Shown in pieces: positions 270 through 46,690 of a stretch of DNA of 64,000 nt. Within the stretch, counting starts at the first letter, position 1; each line of letters opens with the position of its first letter. The stretch is from an uncultured Polaromonas sp. (GTDB taxonomy: Bacteria; Pseudomonadota; Gammaproteobacteria; Burkholderiales; Burkholderiaceae_C): the NCBI GenBank assembly GCA_966112355.1, contig CBHWCZ010000007.1:22752-86751 (forward strand), in the 5' to 3' direction. The translations under genes were made by a program, and so were the position numbers. The notes under the pieces are model-generated. The model worked only from the letters and a program-made list of their open reading frames with translations. It was not told where the DNA came from and did no database searches.

Positions 270-578
270 GGCTTCGACAGAGCCTGTCCTGAGCCTGTCG
301 AAGGGCTCAGCCCGAATAGCATTCAGCAAGCCGAGCGATAGAGACAGGCAGGTATTCAAGCCAGCAGAGCCGCGGGACTGGCTTCGCCAGACCGCAGGCG
401 GACGGCCCCTGAGGGGCATCCTTCGACAGGCTCAGGACGAACGGAATTGAGCGAGCAAGCGGCAAACGCAGGCGGGTATTCAGGCCAGCGGAGCCGTGGA
501 ACCGGCTTTGCCGGGCCACAGGCGGACGGCCCCCTCGGGGGGCAGCGACCCACACGAAGTGGGGGAGCGTGGGGGCCC
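270..578. repeat. Composite REP-like palindromic repeat cluster
   Basis: Perfect 17-bp inverted repeat cctgagcctgtcgaagg (288-304) / ccttcgacaggctcagg (420-436); two related ~72-bp units at 345-416 and 469-540; lies between convergent genes. Confidence 0.85.
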
Positions 579-579
579 T

Positions 580-1218
580 CTATACAGGCCAGACCACCCC
601 TTTGTCATTGAGGATGGCATCCAGCGGAATATCATGCGGCTCTGGGTCCATGTCAGGCAGCCAGCCCTGGCTGAAACCGACGCCCACCGTGAAAGGCCGC
701 GGCTGCAGGGTGGCCAGCGTGCGGTCATAAAAACCGCCGCCGTAGCCCAGCCGGTAACCACCGGGCCCATAACCCACACAGGGCACAAAGAGCAGCGTGG
801 GCACGATGGCCTCGGTGTCCTTGGGTTTGGGAATGCCGTAGGCATCTTCTTCCATCGGGCAGCCCGGGTACCAGGCATGGAATGTGAGCGTCTTGTGCAG
901 CTTGTTCACCACCGGCAGCCCGATCTTGCGCGGCGAGCGCGCCGCAATGCTTTCGGTCGCCAGTTGTGCTTGCTGCACCTCCGCCAGTGCCGGGCTGGAT
1001 GAGACATCCTGGCTCAGGATCGCGTCTTCCTGCCAGCGGTACAGCGCGGGCAATGGATCGAACTCACCCTTGATGGGCCAATAGGCGCCGATCACCTCAT
1101 GGGTGCTGCCCACCAGCCAGATGCGCATCACGCGCTGCAGCAGATCAGCCCGCTCCAGACGGTCGGGCATGTTCAGGCGTTCTTCCACCAAAGCTTTGCG
1201 GGTACTTAATTTGTCCAT
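580..1218 (-). CDS. ygfA: 5-formyltetrahydrofolate cyclo-ligase
   Basis: YWPIKGEFD, VPCVG and GYRLGYGGGFYDRTL motifs. Confidence 0.93.
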   Translation of the reverse strand: MDKLSTRKALVEERLNMPDRLERADLLQRVMRIWLVGSTHEVIGAYWPIKGEFDPLPALYRWQEDAILSQDVSSSPALAEVQQAQLATESIAARSPRKIGLPVVNKLHKTLTFHAWYPGCPMEEDAYGIPKPKDTEAIVPTLLFVPCVGYGPGGYRLGYGGGFYDRTLATLQPRPFTVGVGFSQGWLPDMDPEPHDIPLDAILNDKGVVWPV

Positions 1219-16659: not shown

Positions 16660-17586
16660 ATGGATGTACTGCGCCTGACATTGCGTCAACTGCAAATTTT
16701 TGTGGCGGTGGCCCAAACCGGCAGCACGACGGCAGCCAGCACGCAAATTGCCCTGTCGCAGTCGGCGACCAGCGCGGCCGTCAAGGAGCTGGAGCGTCTG
16801 CTGTCGCTCCACCTGTTCGACAGGGCAGGTAAACGCCTGCTGCTCAACGACAACGGACGAGCTCTGCTGCCGCGGGCGCAGGCCCTGCTGGACGGCGCGG
16901 CCGGGATCGAGCAGATGTCCCGTGATGGCATGGCGCAGTCCCAGTCGCTGCGGATTGGCGCTAGCACCACGATTGGTAACTACGTGTTGCCCCGGCTTCT
17001 CAGGCAGTTTCTGCGTGGACGGCACCAAGACATCGCCACCAGTTGGCATTCAAGGATTGCCATAAACAACACTGAAGCGATATGCGACGCAGTGGACCGG
17101 TTCGAACTCGATGTGGGGCTGATAGAAGGCCCCTGCCACCATACGTCACTCATAGTCACCCCATGGATGCAGGACGAGCTGGTGGTGGTGGGGCACCCGA
17201 CTCTTGCGAATAAATCGAAGCAAGGGCGGGTGTCACTGAAAACATTACGCGATTGGGTATGGCTGCTGCGCGAGGCGGGCTCGGGTACCCGAGAGGCGAC
17301 AGACCAATTGCTACTGCCTCATCTCACTTCCTACCGCCACAGCATCGAACTAGGAAGCTCAGAGGCGATTAAGCACTCGGCTGCAGCAGGACTTGGAGCG
17401 GCATGCCTTTCGCGATGGGTCGTAAGCGACATGCTAGAGGCAAAACTCTTGAAGCGTGTCAATACCACGCTGCCGAAAATGACCCGCCAGTGTTATACGG
17501 TGATTCATCGAGGCAAACAACATACGCCAGCGTTACTGGACTTTATCGATCAAGCAACATCGCTTACAAAATCTAGAGGGAAATAG
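16660..17586 (+). CDS. yeiE: LysR regulator, YeiE-like
   Basis: LTLRQLQIF HTH; GASTTIGNY, LREAGSGTR; divergent from yeiH. Confidence 0.8.
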   Translation: MDVLRLTLRQLQIFVAVAQTGSTTAASTQIALSQSATSAAVKELERLLSLHLFDRAGKRLLLNDNGRALLPRAQALLDGAAGIEQMSRDGMAQSQSLRIGASTTIGNYVLPRLLRQFLRGRHQDIATSWHSRIAINNTEAICDAVDRFELDVGLIEGPCHHTSLIVTPWMQDELVVVGHPTLANKSKQGRVSLKTLRDWVWLLREAGSGTREATDQLLLPHLTSYRHSIELGSSEAIKHSAAAGLGAACLSRWVVSDMLEAKLLKRVNTTLPKMTRQCYTVIHRGKQHTPALLDFIDQATSLTKSRGK

Positions 17587-17614
17587 AAATGTTCTGCGAA
17601 AAGTGAAGCGGGGG

Positions 17615-17840
17615 ATGCTTCGTATCCTTGATTCGTGGATCGAGGGACTTCGACTCGGTCCAGTCGCCTATAGAACTCACACCATTCGCAAAACTAAAGC
17701 ATCCTTGATTTACTGTCGAACGAAGAATATTCGACTTGTCCAATCGCTTCTGGGTCATACCAAACTCTAAAACACCGGGCGGTGCCTCGGCATTGAGGTA
17801 GCAGAAGCCTTGTAGCTTTCATAGTAGACAGAGATTTGCC
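17615..17840 (+). pseudogene. Small tyrosine recombinase, C-terminal remnant
   Basis: YRTHTIRKTKASLIYCRTKNIRLVQSLLGHTKL*NTGRCLGIEVAEAL* (HxxR and LGH boxes); stops at 17768 and 17813; catalytic Tyr position reads Cys. Confidence 0.85.
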
Positions 17841-17901
17841 AGATTGAACTTGGCTGCTGGTTGAATGATTTTTGACTTCCAGTTACAGGTCGTTCCGGTG
17901 C

Positions 17902-17928
17902 GTCCGCTTCTGGCCCGGATGCGGAAAC
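17902..17928 (+). repeat. Cargo hairpin motif copy H2
   Basis: gtccgcttctggcccggatgcggaaac, preceded by ggtcgttc. Confidence 0.8.
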
Positions 17929-18069
17929 TTTGTGCTCCGTCACCAGCATGGTGAAGAAGCCCTTCACCCCGGGCGCGCCGATTTTGGGAGGGTGCTGCAT
18001 TTGCCACCAGGTCGATAAAGCCTGTAGAGTCCAAATGCGCAAAGACGCGCCAACATTCAGGAGACTGCC

Positions 18070-18444
18070 ATGTTCAAAAGCGATACCTGCTGCACCTTGG
18101 TGCCCTACTTCGAAGTCGAGGAATCACAACTCGCCGCCTTCAAAGCACTCGGGCCTAAATTTGTCGAGAAGACACGCACGGAAGCGGGATGCGTGCACTA
18201 CGCGTTCTCTTACAGCGGCCACACAGCCCATTGCCGAGAAGGTTATGTCAACGCGGAAGCAGTTCTCGCACATCTCCAAAATGTCGGCGAGCTGCTTGGT
18301 GAGGCGCTCAAGATAGCCAAGATCACTCGACTCGAGGTCCATGCACCAGCAGCAGAGATCGAGAAACTCAAGGGTCCTATGGAGTCATTGAATCCGCAGT
18401 TCTTTGCCCTCGATCCAGGCATCCGACGCAGCAGCGAAGACTAA
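18070..18444 (+). CDS. ABM-domain putative monooxygenase
   Basis: GGAG RBS; TRTEAGCVHYAF ... REGY..AEAVLAH. Confidence 0.8.
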   Translation: MFKSDTCCTLVPYFEVEESQLAAFKALGPKFVEKTRTEAGCVHYAFSYSGHTAHCREGYVNAEAVLAHLQNVGELLGEALKIAKITRLEVHAPAAEIEKLKGPMESLNPQFFALDPGIRRSSED

Positions 18445-18470
18445 CCCATCAGTCCATCGGATCGCCCACG
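18441..18470 (+). other. Left half of an attC-like site (truncated)
   Basis: ctaacccatcagtcca is 15/16 identical to 6062-6077 of attC1 and contains the ORF stop; no matching GTTRRRY follows. Confidence 0.6.
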
Positions 18471-18506
18471 CCAAATCGAAAGGCTCACAAGCGGTCATTT
18501 AACTGC

Positions 18507-18540
18507 GGCCGCTTCTGGCCCGATTACGGCTGCCGAGACA
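18507..18540 (+). repeat. Cargo hairpin motif copy H3
   Basis: ggccgcttctggcccgattacggctgccgagaca; preceded by aagcggtcatt. Confidence 0.8.
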
Positions 18541-18708
18541 TTGCGGACGTTATCCGCTTCAGTAATTTCACATTTTCATCGTCGGTTCCCTTGATTTGGG
18601 CGATGAGGCGGTCCCTCCCGACGGCGATTTCAGCGGCTACAAGCGCACAGTAAACTGAGACGGCCGAATTGCGGCTAATTACAAAAGACAATGAGAAGGA
18701 GACAAGCC

Positions 18709-40483: not shown

Positions 40484-41290
40484 ATGCCTTTGCGCCCGAG
40501 CCCGACGCCATCGTCACCCCTGGACACCCCCCGGCGCCGCGCATTGAAGGCCACGGGCTGGTCCGCCGTCAGGAGGATGTGCCTCGCAGCGGCGTCGCTG
40601 GCGCTGCTGTCGGCCTGTGCCAGCCCGCCCGCCAACCCCAGGGGCGAGGTCAACACCGCACCCATGTCGTCGGGTGAGATCGCACAATCGGACATCAACC
40701 GCATGGCCACCCTGGGCATGCGCGAGAACCTCGACAGCCTGCTGCGGCTGGCTGACAAGCTCTACCGGCGCAACCCCGCCGAATGGCGCAAAAGCGGCAG
40801 CAACAGCCGGGAAGCGGCCCTGGTGCAACTGCGCACGGCAGTGGATCAGCGCACGCCCTGGAGCGATCTTCAGGGCCGGCGCGACATCGCCGCGCTGTCG
40901 CTGGCACTGGGCCCGGACTTCAGGGGCGACCGTGTGGCGGCATTCATCTACGCCAGTGCCGACATGGTGGTCACGGCGCACGGCGGCAGGACGAACTTCT
41001 ACCTGACGGACGCGCTCGACGCACAGTACATCTACAACGCCGCCCGCAACATCGAGATCGCCGTGTGGATGCTGTCCAACCGGCGCAACGCGGCCAACCA
41101 GCCGCTGCTGCTGGCAGACGAGATCAGCGAACGGGAGCGCAACCTCAGCTTCGAGCGCGAGTTCGGCAAGATCATCGGCCGGCTGGACCTGCTGTCGCAG
41201 GTGCTGACCGAAAAATACCGCCGCGCCGTCATCACCTATGTGCAGAACCTGCTGGGCGGCGCCTTTCTTCAGTTCCTTCCGGTCAGATAG
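40484..41290 (+). CDS. Conserved hypothetical lipoprotein
   Basis: Lipobox LSAC; KLYRRNP.EW; start uncertain. Confidence 0.7.
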   Translation: MPLRPSPTPSSPLDTPRRRALKATGWSAVRRMCLAAASLALLSACASPPANPRGEVNTAPMSSGEIAQSDINRMATLGMRENLDSLLRLADKLYRRNPAEWRKSGSNSREAALVQLRTAVDQRTPWSDLQGRRDIAALSLALGPDFRGDRVAAFIYASADMVVTAHGGRTNFYLTDALDAQYIYNAARNIEIAVWMLSNRRNAANQPLLLADEISERERNLSFEREFGKIIGRLDLLSQVLTEKYRRAVITYVQNLLGGAFLQFLPVR

Positions 41291-41292
41291 CT

Positions 41293-41473
41293 CACCCCCT
41301 TCTCGGCTCACTGCGTGTAGCCGGATCCCCCCTTCCAGGGGGCGACAGCTGCGGCCCGGCAAAGCCGGTTCCGCGCTGCCTGTGACCCACCCCCTTCTCG
41401 GCTCACTGCGTGTAGCCGGATCCCCCCTTGCAGGGGGCGACAGCTGCGGCCCGGCAAAGCCGGTTCCGCGCTG
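41293..41473. repeat. Two tandem 86-bp REP-like units (period 95 bp)
   Basis: 41293-41378 and 41388-41473 differ at one base; share ggcccggcaaagccggttcc with 480-540 and the priA insert. Confidence 0.92.
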
Positions 41474-41527
41474 TCACTGATCCGGGCAGGTAAGCTGCAG
41501 TGAAAAGAGTCGCTGACCAGACACAAT

Positions 41528-44443: not shown

Positions 44444-46690
44444 ATGACCTTCTGGCACCAGATCGTGGTGGCCACGCCGGCACACAGTGCCGTGGCGGGG
44501 CCGCTGACCTACAAAAGTGGGCAGGCACTCGCGCCGGGTGCGTTGGTACGCGTGCCGCTCGGCAAGCGCGAGGTGCTGGGGGTCGTCTGGAGCAATCTGG
44601 CGGACAGTGGCGACCTGCCCGAAGCCCAGGCCCGCGCCATTGCCGGCGTGCTGGAAGGCCTGCCCCCCCTCACGGCCACCTGGCGCCAGCTGGTCAGCTT
44701 CACCGCCAGCTACTACCAGCGCTCGCTGGGCGAGGTGGCGTTGGCCGCCCTGCCGCCGCAGCTACGCGATCTGAGCAGCGAGCAGTTGGCGCGGCGACTG
44801 AAGCGGCCCGTGGCCGACACCAGCTACGCCCCCGACAGCGCAGTGGACGCCCGCCTCGCCGTGGCGCTGAGCACCGAGCAGGCGAAGGCGCTGGCTGAGT
44901 TTGCCGCCGACAGCCGGCCTGCGCTGCTGTTTGGCGCCACCGGCAGCGGCAAGACCGAGGTCTACCTGCGCGCCGCCGCACAAGTACTGGACGACGACCC
45001 GCTGGCCCAGGTGCTGGTGATGGTGCCGGAAATCAACCTCACACCCCAGTTGCAGCAGCGCTTCGAGGCCCGCTTTGCGCACCTCGGCAAGGAAAGGGTG
45101 GTGGCCCTGCACAGCGGGCTCACGCCGGCACAGCGCCTCAAGAGCTGGCTGTCCGCGCACACCGGCCACGCCCGGCTGGTGCTGGGAACCCGCATGGCGG
45201 TGCTGGCGCCCCTGCCGCGCCTGCGGCTGATCGTGGTGGATGAAGAGCACGACCCCAGCTACAAGCAGCAGGAGGGCGCCCGCTACTCGGCACGCGACCT
45301 GGCGGTGTACCGCAGCAAACTGGAAACGGAAGACGCCGCCGCCCCCTGCCGCGTGCTGCTGGGCTCGGCCACGCCGTCGCTGGAGAGCTGGCAGGCCACC
45401 CTCGCCGGCCGCTACCAGCGCCTCACCTTGAATGACCGGATAGATGGAGCCCCCACGCTTGTCGCTTCGCGTACTGCGCTGCCCCCCGAGGGGGCCGCCC
45501 GCCTGTGGCCCGGCAAAGCCGGTTCCACGGCTCAAGCTGATGGAATACCGGCCCCCACGCTTGTCGCTTCGCCTGCTGCGCTGCCTGTGAAGGGGGAGCT
45601 ACCACTCGTCAGGCGCGTGGACATGAACCATCAGCCCAAGCACTGCACCATCGCGCCGCCCCTGCTCGACGCCATCGCCCAGCGCGTGGCGCGCGGGGAG
45701 CAGTCGCTGATCTTTCTCAACCGGCGCGGTTATGCCCCGGTGCTGGCCTGCCACGACTGCGGCTGGAAAAGCGAGTGCCCGCACTGCAGCGCCTTCCGGG
45801 TGTTCCACAAGATCGACCGCACGCTGCGTTGCCACCACTGCGGCTACACCGAGCGCGTGCCGCGCGCCTGCCCCAGCTGCGGCAACATCGACATCGCGCC
45901 GGTCGGGCGTGGCACCGAACGGCTGGAGGAACACCTGGCCGAGCTGCTGGCTGGCGTAGAGCGCCCGGGCGGCGGCACCGTGCGCATTGCGCGCATCGAC
46001 GCCGACAGCACGCGCCTCAAAGGCTCGCTCGAATCGCAGCTGGCCAGCGTACATGCCGGCGAGGTGGATGTGCTGGTCGGCACGCAGATGATCGCCAAGG
46101 GCCACGACTTTCGCCACATCACGCTGGTCGCTGCCATCAACCCGGACGGCGCACTGTTTTCCAGCGACTTCCGCGCGCCCGAGCGTCTGTTCAGCCTGTT
46201 GATGCAGGCAGGCGGTCGCGCCGGGCGCGATGCGCGCCACAGTGCCGCCAGCGAAATGTGGGTGCAGACCTTCCACCCCACGCACCCGCTGTTCGAGTGC
46301 CTGAAAAAACACGACTACCCGGGCTTTGCCACCCAGCAGCTGGAAGAAAGGCAGGCCGCGGGCATGTCGCCTTTCGGCTTCTCGGCATTGATCCGCGCCG
46401 AGGCCCGGTCGCAGGATGTCGCCCAGGGCTTTCTCAACGCGGCGGCGGCAGCAGCCAGCGCGCAGCAGATCACGGCCCACGATCAGGTCAGTGCCTACCC
46501 GGCGGTGCCGATGACGATACAGCGCGTGGCCAACATCGAACGGGCGCAGATGCTGGTGGAGAGTCCGTCGCGCAAAGCCTTGCAGCATTTTCTGGCCGCC
46601 TGGCAGCCGCTGCTTTTCGAGACCCGCGCGCAGCCAGAGCACAAGAGCCTGGTCCGCTGGGCGATTGATGTGGACCCGATTGCGATCTGA
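44444..46690 (+). CDS. priA: Primosomal protein N'
   Basis: GATGSGKTEVY, VDEEHD, GSATPSLES, four CxxC pairs, GTQMIAKGHD, WAIDVDP. Confidence 0.97.
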   Translation: MTFWHQIVVATPAHSAVAGPLTYKSGQALAPGALVRVPLGKREVLGVVWSNLADSGDLPEAQARAIAGVLEGLPPLTATWRQLVSFTASYYQRSLGEVALAALPPQLRDLSSEQLARRLKRPVADTSYAPDSAVDARLAVALSTEQAKALAEFAADSRPALLFGATGSGKTEVYLRAAAQVLDDDPLAQVLVMVPEINLTPQLQQRFEARFAHLGKERVVALHSGLTPAQRLKSWLSAHTGHARLVLGTRMAVLAPLPRLRLIVVDEEHDPSYKQQEGARYSARDLAVYRSKLETEDAAAPCRVLLGSATPSLESWQATLAGRYQRLTLNDRIDGAPTLVASRTALPPEGAARLWPGKAGSTAQADGIPAPTLVASPAALPVKGELPLVRRVDMNHQPKHCTIAPPLLDAIAQRVARGEQSLIFLNRRGYAPVLACHDCGWKSECPHCSAFRVFHKIDRTLRCHHCGYTERVPRACPSCGNIDIAPVGRGTERLEEHLAELLAGVERPGGGTVRIARIDADSTRLKGSLESQLASVHAGEVDVLVGTQMIAKGHDFRHITLVAAINPDGALFSSDFRAPERLFSLLMQAGGRAGRDARHSAASEMWVQTFHPTHPLFECLKKHDYPGFATQQLEERQAAGMSPFGFSALIRAEARSQDVAQGFLNAAAAAASAQQITAHDQVSAYPAVPMTIQRVANIERAQMLVESPSRKALQHFLAAWQPLLFETRAQPEHKSLVRWAIDVDPIAI
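45443..45596 (+). repeat. REP-like element inserted in frame in priA
   Basis: 45481-45533 is 52/53 identical to the reverse complement of 491-543; 22-bp direct repeats at 45449 and 45551, 102 bp apart. Confidence 0.9.

Follow-up and report, generated by a model that had tools for sequence, protein, structure and literature searches.

In-frame beta-proteobacterial repeat elements in a recurrently filled linker of the PriA helicase of Polaromonas

The replication-restart helicase gene priA of an uncultured Polaromonas sp., located in a 64,000-nt stretch of contig CBHWCZ010000007.1 that we analyzed as a whole (hereafter the window), contains a segment of dispersed palindromic repeat in its reading frame. 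By its sequence, the segment belongs to the Beta-proteobacterial repeat element (BRE) family, and it lies in the linker between the two helicase lobes, which in Polaromonas is a genus-wide hotspot of insertion and not the scene of a one-off accident. We consider it likely that the roughly 1.45 tandem BRE units in this inter-lobe linker are a tolerated passenger, and that they represent one instance of a recurrent process across the genus. An earlier note, made from the DNA alone, had recognized a dispersed palindromic repeat in frame in PriA, an observation borne out by the core match, the empty-site orthologs, the two assemblies and the unitigs described below. Its view of a single hit comparable to the coding palindromes of Rickettsia did not hold up, because the repeats found in the linker differ in kind, orientation and copy number, and two other loops of the protein are hit as well.

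A dispersed repeat within the priA reading frame

The open reading frame (ORF) at 44444..46690 on the + strand encodes a 748-aa PriA, identified from the ORF list, from Pfam matches (PriA_3primeBD, DEAD/ResIII, Zn_ribbon_PriA, Helicase_C and PriA_C), and from similarity to solved PriA structures (6dcr/4nl4, E = 1e-133). All features that define a PriA are present: the 3′ DNA-binding domain (3′BD), the superfamily 2 (SF2) helicase lobes with motifs I–VI, the Cys-rich zinc region and the C-terminal domain. In a 41-sequence PriA alignment, the GxGKT, DEEH, GSATPS and QxxGRxGR motifs and the eight Cys of the Cys-rich region show no variation on either side of the insert. The DEAD match ends at residue 314 and the Cys-rich region is at residue 445; the extra segment falls between the two, and alignment of the window PriA to the solved structures breaks exactly at it, with residues 337–391 (55 aa) standing opposite about 7 residues of Escherichia coli PriA. 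The equivalent position in E. coli PriA (8fak) is approximately residues 381–387 (A-G-N-A-R-P-A), which by structure alignment follows the last element of helicase lobe 1 and precedes lobe 2; the domain context of this position is given in PMC5778457 and PMC5175346. Against Polaromonas orthologs whose site is empty, the window PriA is 43 residues longer here (69 versus 26 aa between anchors). The earlier note gave ~50 extra codons and a start at 45443, but that position is codon 334, GAT (Asp), and the first codon of the actual repeat is at 45449 (GCC, Ala336). The flanks of the insert have coding-type G+C content at the third codon position (GC3, 0.92 and 0.87), and the frame is intact through all 748 codons.

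About 148 nt of priA (45449–45596) are built from the dispersed repeat. The first copy of module A (45449..45496, + strand) consists of a C-run, a small variable hairpin and CCCCCC-GA-GGGGG, and reads APTLVASRTALPPEGA. It is followed by a hairpin module (45497..45550, + strand) with the invariant core GGCCCGGCAAAGCCGGTTCC at 45507–45526, which reads ...ARLWPGKAGSTAQADGIP; here, a 1-nt difference from the family consensus changes the phase, giving ...ARLWPGKAGS. The second copy of module A (45551..45596, + strand) is degenerate, has lost its second C-run and reads APTLVASPAALPVKG. Module A, hairpin and degenerate module A together amount to about 1.45 tandem BRE units. As the earlier note reported, the direct repeat arms (45449–45494 and 45551–45596) are 102 nt, or 34 codons, apart; they are 46 nt long and 85% identical. 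Tandem Repeats Finder called no array on the insert, 1.45 copies being below its threshold. A 52-nt core at 45481–45532 matches the reverse strand of 492–543 at 51/52 positions, a match found in 0 of 100 shuffles, and similarity to 457–583 extends for ~130 nt at 80% identity. This is essentially the 52/53 identity to 491–543 reported before, although that the match is to the complementary strand was left unsaid.

The PriA insertion is genuine DNA and not an assembly artefact. An independent ENA assembly is 100% identical to the window over 16.5 kb, and read run X1 holds 97% of the words. In this run, error-free unitigs at single-copy depth cross both the left (45278–45476) and the right (45505–45800) junction, providing the read support by which the earlier note wished the insertion to be judged. 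The word depth of the hairpin core is in ~100x excess in metagenome runs, as expected for a multi-copy repeat. The second copy of module A is at single-copy depth in run X1, unlike the first, and looks like an older unit beside a newer one.

Family identity and coding status of the repeat

Alignment places the PriA repeat in the BRE family of Hot et al. 2011 (BMC Genomics 12:207, PMC3110155), who described a "Beta-proteobacterial repeat element" of ~90 bp, GC-rich and hairpin-forming, arranged in tandem with variable copy number, with copies scattered through Bordetella and Comamonadaceae and the highest abundance in Polaromonas sp. JS666. The same paper remarks that some copies lie entirely inside coding sequences; its main text does not name priA and describes no hotspot, reading frames or ortholog comparison, and our literature search found no further paper using the BRE name. 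In local alignments to the Bordetella BREs of List S1, the JS666 PriA insert matched at 64/76 positions (z = 21), an insert at a second PriA loop of genome L207 (site B, below) at 63/72 (z = 16), and the reverse complement of the window insert at 55/64 (z = 9.5); for the first copy of module A alone, reverse complemented, matches to published Bordetella BREs ranged from 38/46 to 55/64 (z = 7–9.5). Like the published elements, those examined here are multi-copy, dispersed and mostly intergenic, with units of 84–102 nt as against ~75–91 bp, and their tandem copy number is variable: 1.45 units in the window priA, three in L204, two at 41286–41480 and five in L090. The window copy differs in its longer hairpin (core GGCCCGGCAAAGCCGG), which replaces the short left part of the Bordetella BRE; this long-hairpin variant is widespread in Comamonadaceae.

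The core GGCCCGGCAAAGCCGGTTCC occurs in at least 120 stretches from species-representative genomes, nearly all with Comamonadaceae or other Burkholderiales titles; the genera carrying it among the matches listed are Variovorax, Hydrogenophaga, Polaromonas, Rhodoferax, Ramlibacter, Roseateles and Rubrivivax. Core-bearing copies in Comamonadaceae usually lie directly 3′ of a stop codon. The family layout comprises a C-run, a small variable hairpin, a CCCCC-loop-GGGGG hairpin and then the long hairpin around the core. Within the family alignment, 94.5% of cells of the long hairpin are paired, compared with 83% in shuffles and ~40% when the partner column is slid, and 10 of 17 stem pairs show compensatory changes. 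Rfam returned no family for the whole window at the gathering threshold, or for five repeat-bearing loci at E <= 0.1. Two core-bearing contigs, L010 and L058, are labelled as metagenome-assembled genome (MAG: Synechococcus sp. UW140) and are probably betaproteobacterial contigs binned with the cyanobacterium; L010 also matches BRE-containing PriA inserts at two places.

Copies of the family are almost never coding. We tested copies for a stop-free frame with high GC3 and low G+C content at the second codon position on both flanks. By this codon-position test, 0 of ~123 copies sampled in other genomes were coding, and the window priA copy, used as positive control, passed. A naive test for a stop-free frame spanning the repeat flagged 29 copies, all of them spurious by codon-position G+C content. 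When the insert peptide was searched exhaustively with HMMER against 1.84 billion representative proteins, 61 hits resulted, almost all of them ORFs of 48–240 aa laid over intergenic repeats, and a few real domains running into a repeat at the gene end; at 50% identity clustering, inserts are invisible in conserved proteins whose representative is without one. A word-indexed peptide search returned 91 candidates and missed PriA orthologs sharing 16 identical residues, which makes it unusable for counting coding copies. In 179 kb of Polaromonas DNA from nine sources, a sample centred on priA, we found 15 BRE loci, 10 of them intergenic and five within a gene, which was priA in all five cases.

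The predicted proteins P0202, P0218 and P0221 include cases where a real domain (a pilin N-terminal methylation motif, or a ferredoxin domain of the 2Fe-2S type) continues at the gene end into peptide encoded by a BRE, and one ORF among them reads through a whole array of several repeat families; they may be annotation artefacts or real terminal fusions. In JS666 (L203, CP000316), a reverse BRE at 17318–17389 lies inside the annotated 5′ end of a SufS-like aminotransferase gene (17310–18665), and the orthologous copy in the relative L204 (16217–16287) is intergenic, between sufD and sufS. The JS666 case is probably a mis-set start codon or a repeat-created N-terminal extension.

Within the window, the closest relative of the PriA insert is the intergenic copy at 457..583 on the − strand, which no coding frame spans. 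Adjoining it is a second, more diverged intergenic copy (324..416, − strand; 72% identity over 96 nt). Two further tandem intergenic copies at 41286..41480 (+ strand; blastn matches at 41286–41375 and 41403–41470), with a period of 117, belong to a sister subfamily with a common core hairpin; the pair begins right at a stop codon and has no coding frame. Downstream of the first gene, the intergenic region at 250–600 combines at least two families of repeats in mosaic fashion; in it another palindrome, CTGAGCC(T/C)(G/T)TCGAAGG / CCTTCGACAGGCTCAG, at ~270–320 and ~420–440 is interleaved with the BRE units. This palindrome translates to LSLSKG, a peptide also found inside the PriA insert of P0030. 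Elsewhere, the longest array seen is at L090 3999–4510, with five head-to-tail core-bearing copies at a period of ~122 nt. Three Polaromonas lineages have a BRE at the same intergenic position (L203 2994–3210, L204 953–1040 and L205 3368–3459), downstream of a gene for a 228–248 aa protein and upstream of a UbiE-type methyltransferase gene, and this common position marks some intergenic copies as old and positionally conserved.

Recurrent insertion in priA across Polaromonas

We compared the 120 top-ranking homologs of PriA, which are Polaromonas-like without exception, have no more than 81% identity to the query and are 701–830 aa long, and scored the linker (site C) between the anchors GSATPSLESWQAT and VRRVDMN, which was possible in 114. 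The distance between anchors ranged from 24 to 132 aa, with 69 aa in the window. Site C was empty (24–27 aa, for example ...ERVAATDGEQGSLPT) in ~27 of the 114 and filled in ~75%; the 704-aa orthologs, a large clade, are without insert. The earlier note would have been refuted had orthologs broadly shared the segment; what they share is the site and not the segment. Its dating of the event as recent fits the 51/52 core identity, which is consistent with a recent exchange, but the event is not singular in a linker so commonly filled.

The filled linkers fall into four classes: forward BREs (APTLxASRxALPPEGA...), opposite-strand BREs (GPPxGKLAPPGGSxxxxxSxxGG), a second, perfectly palindromic family (LLPLPLGEGRGEG; DNA CCCCCACCCTCTC...GAGAGGGTGGGGG) that has copies elsewhere too, and STGEEAAPYxAGPQPEPYTPPKAxEPG, present in one large clade (L205 10955–11116 and ~30 orthologs). 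This last class has no repeat relative in any locus compared. Module A occurs in PriA orthologs in both orientations, and the number of BRE units at site C varies among them; at the DNA level, priA of the finished JS666 chromosome carries a reverse-oriented BRE, and that of L204 three forward tandem units. Two more loops of the protein are affected. At site B, between the aromatic-rich loop and motif III (approximately residues 345–351 of E. coli PriA), nine or ten orthologs contain reverse BREs, all with the same orientation, phase and right junction (...SVGA-xx-CRV), and in a third loop, within the 3′BD, two orthologs contain a forward BRE.

A trio of ~93% identical genes is informative at the nucleotide level: one has an additional 90 nt at site C, another has an additional 99 nt at site B, and the third lacks both. 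Each addition is a whole number of codons with clean junctions. No target-site duplication is present at the site-B and site-C junctions of the trio, and at site C, the terminal G-run of the element overlaps a G-run of the target. On a neighbor-joining tree of the PriAs built with the variable sites masked, the insert classes are patchy and sister lineages differ, the Fitch minimum being 7 changes for filled versus empty, 17 for forward BREs, 10 for reverse BREs and 10 for the second family; the nine site-B inserts on this tree require 9. As outgroup, we used 72 PriAs of other genera from a metagenome priA scan that returned mostly other genera. Their lengths are nearly constant: site B measures 30 aa in 69 of these 72, and site C measures 63–77 aa in all but three, using different anchors (GSATP to the (F/L)LNRRG motif).

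Two observations concern unoccupied sites. At window positions 45311–45355 (PriA residues ~290–304, site B), "empty" Polaromonas PriAs are ~9 residues longer than those of E. coli and Klebsiella, so the site-B loop was already longer when BREs entered it in some lineages. In run X3, from a groundwater metagenome, one contig belonging to a related organism runs from 45384 directly into 45614 and so omits 229 nt, the insert among them. It may come from an empty-site relative, but it is unreliable, since 229 cannot be divided by three and only 24 nt of flank are available.

The recurrence could have a simpler history, in which a single BRE insertion in an early ancestor of Polaromonas was followed by churn in place and no new insertions, the later diversity arising as the tandem array grew or shrank, inverted between its complementary ends, underwent gene conversion by copies elsewhere in the genome, or suffered deletions. 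This alternative bears on history only, and we regard it as a serious possibility, if on the doubtful side. It would account for the constant phase of the forward module and for reverse copies that keep the codon register of the 48-nt module, and it is in keeping with the variable BRE copy number reported in PMC3110155, with the uniform site-B inserts and with the high proportion of filled linkers. In the window itself, a degenerate, single-copy second unit stands next to a family-like first one, as if a new unit had been added beside an old one. Against a single ancestral insertion, the linker is short and free of any BRE remnant in the outgroup genera and in several lineages of Polaromonas, and the trio differs by the clean presence or absence of whole units. 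Churn also fits poorly with an unrelated palindromic family at the same site, with hits in three separate loops, and with the 0–3 residues that separate the conserved RIG from APTL in different orthologs, which imply that the insertion points differ.

Probable tolerance and origin of the inserts, and their significance

Every forward BRE in PriA is read in the APTL..LPPEGA phase; most copies are open in the two remaining phases as well, which would give Arg/Cys-rich peptides. The fixed phase, combined with the variable RIG–APTL distance, points to a selective filter at the peptide level and not to a fixed insertion nucleotide. Residues A/P/G/S/T/E/Q make up 72% of the insert and 48% of the remaining PriA, whereas hydrophobic residues make up 16.5% and 31%, respectively. 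In a clade with one common insert, identity is 75.7% within the insert versus 96.1% elsewhere in PriA, and the inserts change approximately six times faster than the remaining protein. From these sequence properties, the insert is probably a disordered loop, which may lie at the surface as the earlier note supposed, and probably a tolerated passenger, close to neutral, and not a functional module. We infer that it is transcribed and translated with priA.

We propose that a BRE, normally 3′ intergenic, came to sit in frame at the linker of RecA-like lobes 1 and 2, where translation would yield a Pro/Gly/Ala-rich, weakly constrained and disordered loop that the helicase could tolerate. BREs in either orientation and at least one other palindromic family would have been gained, tandemly duplicated, exchanged and lost repeatedly at the linker and the two other loops. 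The most likely route would be recombinational, by template switching or slippage at G/C runs and by gene conversion with the genomic repeat pool, since the tandem, variable-copy-number behavior of the family agrees with this more readily than with cut-and-paste transposition. For a gene of such importance, purifying selection would then leave only products that are in frame, stop-free and in a benign phase.

Several points weigh against this proposal. The AlphaFold2 model, from the 41-sequence alignment, is poor overall (mean predicted local distance difference test score 48.6; insert 26–30), which makes the low confidence at residues 334–391 weak support for disorder. The RNA runs cover only the multi-copy repeat core and not transcription through the insert. 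The whole insert folds no better than shuffles (z = 0.06 as RNA, −1.07 as DNA), so what speaks for structure is the covariation within the family, seen at the core hairpin. The share of filled linkers may carry a bias, as the ortholog query was itself insert-bearing and 6 of the 120 homologs were unscored; the 179-kb sample, being centred on priA and not genome-wide, limits any claim of enrichment. Event counts come from a simple neighbor-joining tree and could be inflated by recombination among priA alleles, and the uniform site-B inserts could reflect one origin spread by recombination and not many insertions. Two clean junction pairs, with G-run overlap at one of them, found the microhomology or recombination route only weakly.

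An adaptive linker is unlikely. On this hypothesis, the inserts are selected as a longer or more flexible tether between the lobes, or as a new interaction surface that tunes PriA, with benefits such as cold adaptation in Polaromonas or escape from a PriA-targeting factor, and their recurrence is a sign of positive or diversifying selection. It draws on the return of inserts to the same three loops in one genus only, on the one benign reading phase and on the retention of an insert in most lineages. The insert sequence, however, changes about six times faster than other parts of PriA; length, orientation and repeat family all vary freely; no peptide motif is conserved beyond that dictated by the DNA repeat; and empty-site lineages, including the large 704-aa clade, look healthy. 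A related idea, slightly more improbable still, is that the priA linkers are specific targets, with at least two unrelated hairpin repeat families captured preferentially at the three loops, forming a genus-wide coding minisatellite whose variants in length are kept by selection. If so, length variants might tune replication restart or allow escape from a PriA-binding factor, and the linkers would be a case of recombination-driven protein variation in a core replication protein.

We give little credence to the idea that the insert is absent from the mature protein, whether because priA is a pseudogene or because the segment is removed in the manner of introns or inteins. It is rich in hairpins and RNA runs reach its core alone, but the frame is intact with coding-type flanks, no second priA is evident, and dozens of orthologs carry different inserts, all in frame. 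A self-splicing intron or intein was rejected as a candidate: Rfam shows no ribozyme signature in the window, self-splicing introns included, Pfam shows no intein/Hint domain, and 148 nt or ~50 aa is far too small for either. Least credible of all is an assembly artefact in which a multi-copy repeat was collapsed or mis-joined into priA; sequence at ~100x depth is prone to such errors, but the two concordant assemblies, the unitigs spanning both junctions, the kept frame, and the analogous inserts at the same codon positions in many independent genomes, including the finished JS666 chromosome, leave it almost no room.

Among known systems, the closest is the BRE itself; the palindromic elements of Rickettsia (RPEs; Ogata et al. 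2000, as presented in PMC10969869) are comparable in outcome. They are described there as small palindromic repeats of ~150 bp in an obligate intracellular alphaproteobacterium, lying in frame in conserved genes, with nearly half of the copies coding in some families and the coding copies spread over many unrelated genes, usually one per gene. The likeness drawn by the earlier note is a functional one, an in-frame palindromic repeat whose extra peptide, if translated as we suppose, is apparently tolerated by the fold, and it does not extend to family membership: the repeat matches BRE, the nearest PriA relatives are all named Polaromonas, and no relationship to RPEs in sequence is expected. 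As far as that account of RPEs goes, the BRE case also differs in its host of free-living type, in a family that is almost wholly non-coding, and in one gene hit repeatedly with turnover; 0 of ~123 copies elsewhere are coding, and all five coding copies are in priA. BREs also resemble REP/REPIN-RAYT elements and MITEs (miniature transposable elements with inverted repeats, such as Correia and ERIC), which are short, GC-rich, hairpin-forming, multi-copy and mostly 3′-intergenic, some MITEs forming in-frame fusions (PMC3184786, PMC10969869). Judged by sequence features, membership in these groups is not supported. The two clean BRE junctions lack a target-site duplication, tandem arrays of variable copy number are atypical of MITEs, the ends GCCCCC...GGGGGC are complementary over only ~6 nt, and no conserved GTAG-type motif is evident in the alignment of repeat copies.

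The repeat itself is already known, as a published family with intragenic copies mentioned in 2011 (PMC3110155), and the single insertion adds one more case to a kind already known, which a sentence of that paper had in part foreseen. Taken alone, the insertion is ordinary; the hotspot is surprising. To our knowledge, no hotspot has been described that spans a genus and involves several sites and several repeat families in a core replication helicase, and we know of in-frame insertion of selfish palindromic repeats as a textbook phenomenon only from Rickettsia, where it is usually viewed as a quirk of a reduced genome. For annotation, BRE copies are something to be prepared for, as they inflate protein length, create spurious small ORFs, mis-set start codons and split PriA alignments. 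Nature has provided in these orthologs dozens of PriA alleles that range from 0 to ~105 extra residues at one defined position between the lobes, a series useful for studying the tolerance of the SF2 helicase hinge, the movement of BRE-type repeats and the filtering of reading frames by selection. In this genus of free-living type, the outcome is the same as in Rickettsia and the dynamic is different, a repeat found elsewhere almost strictly between genes having hit two smaller loops of a core helicase and made one of its linkers into a variable coding array.

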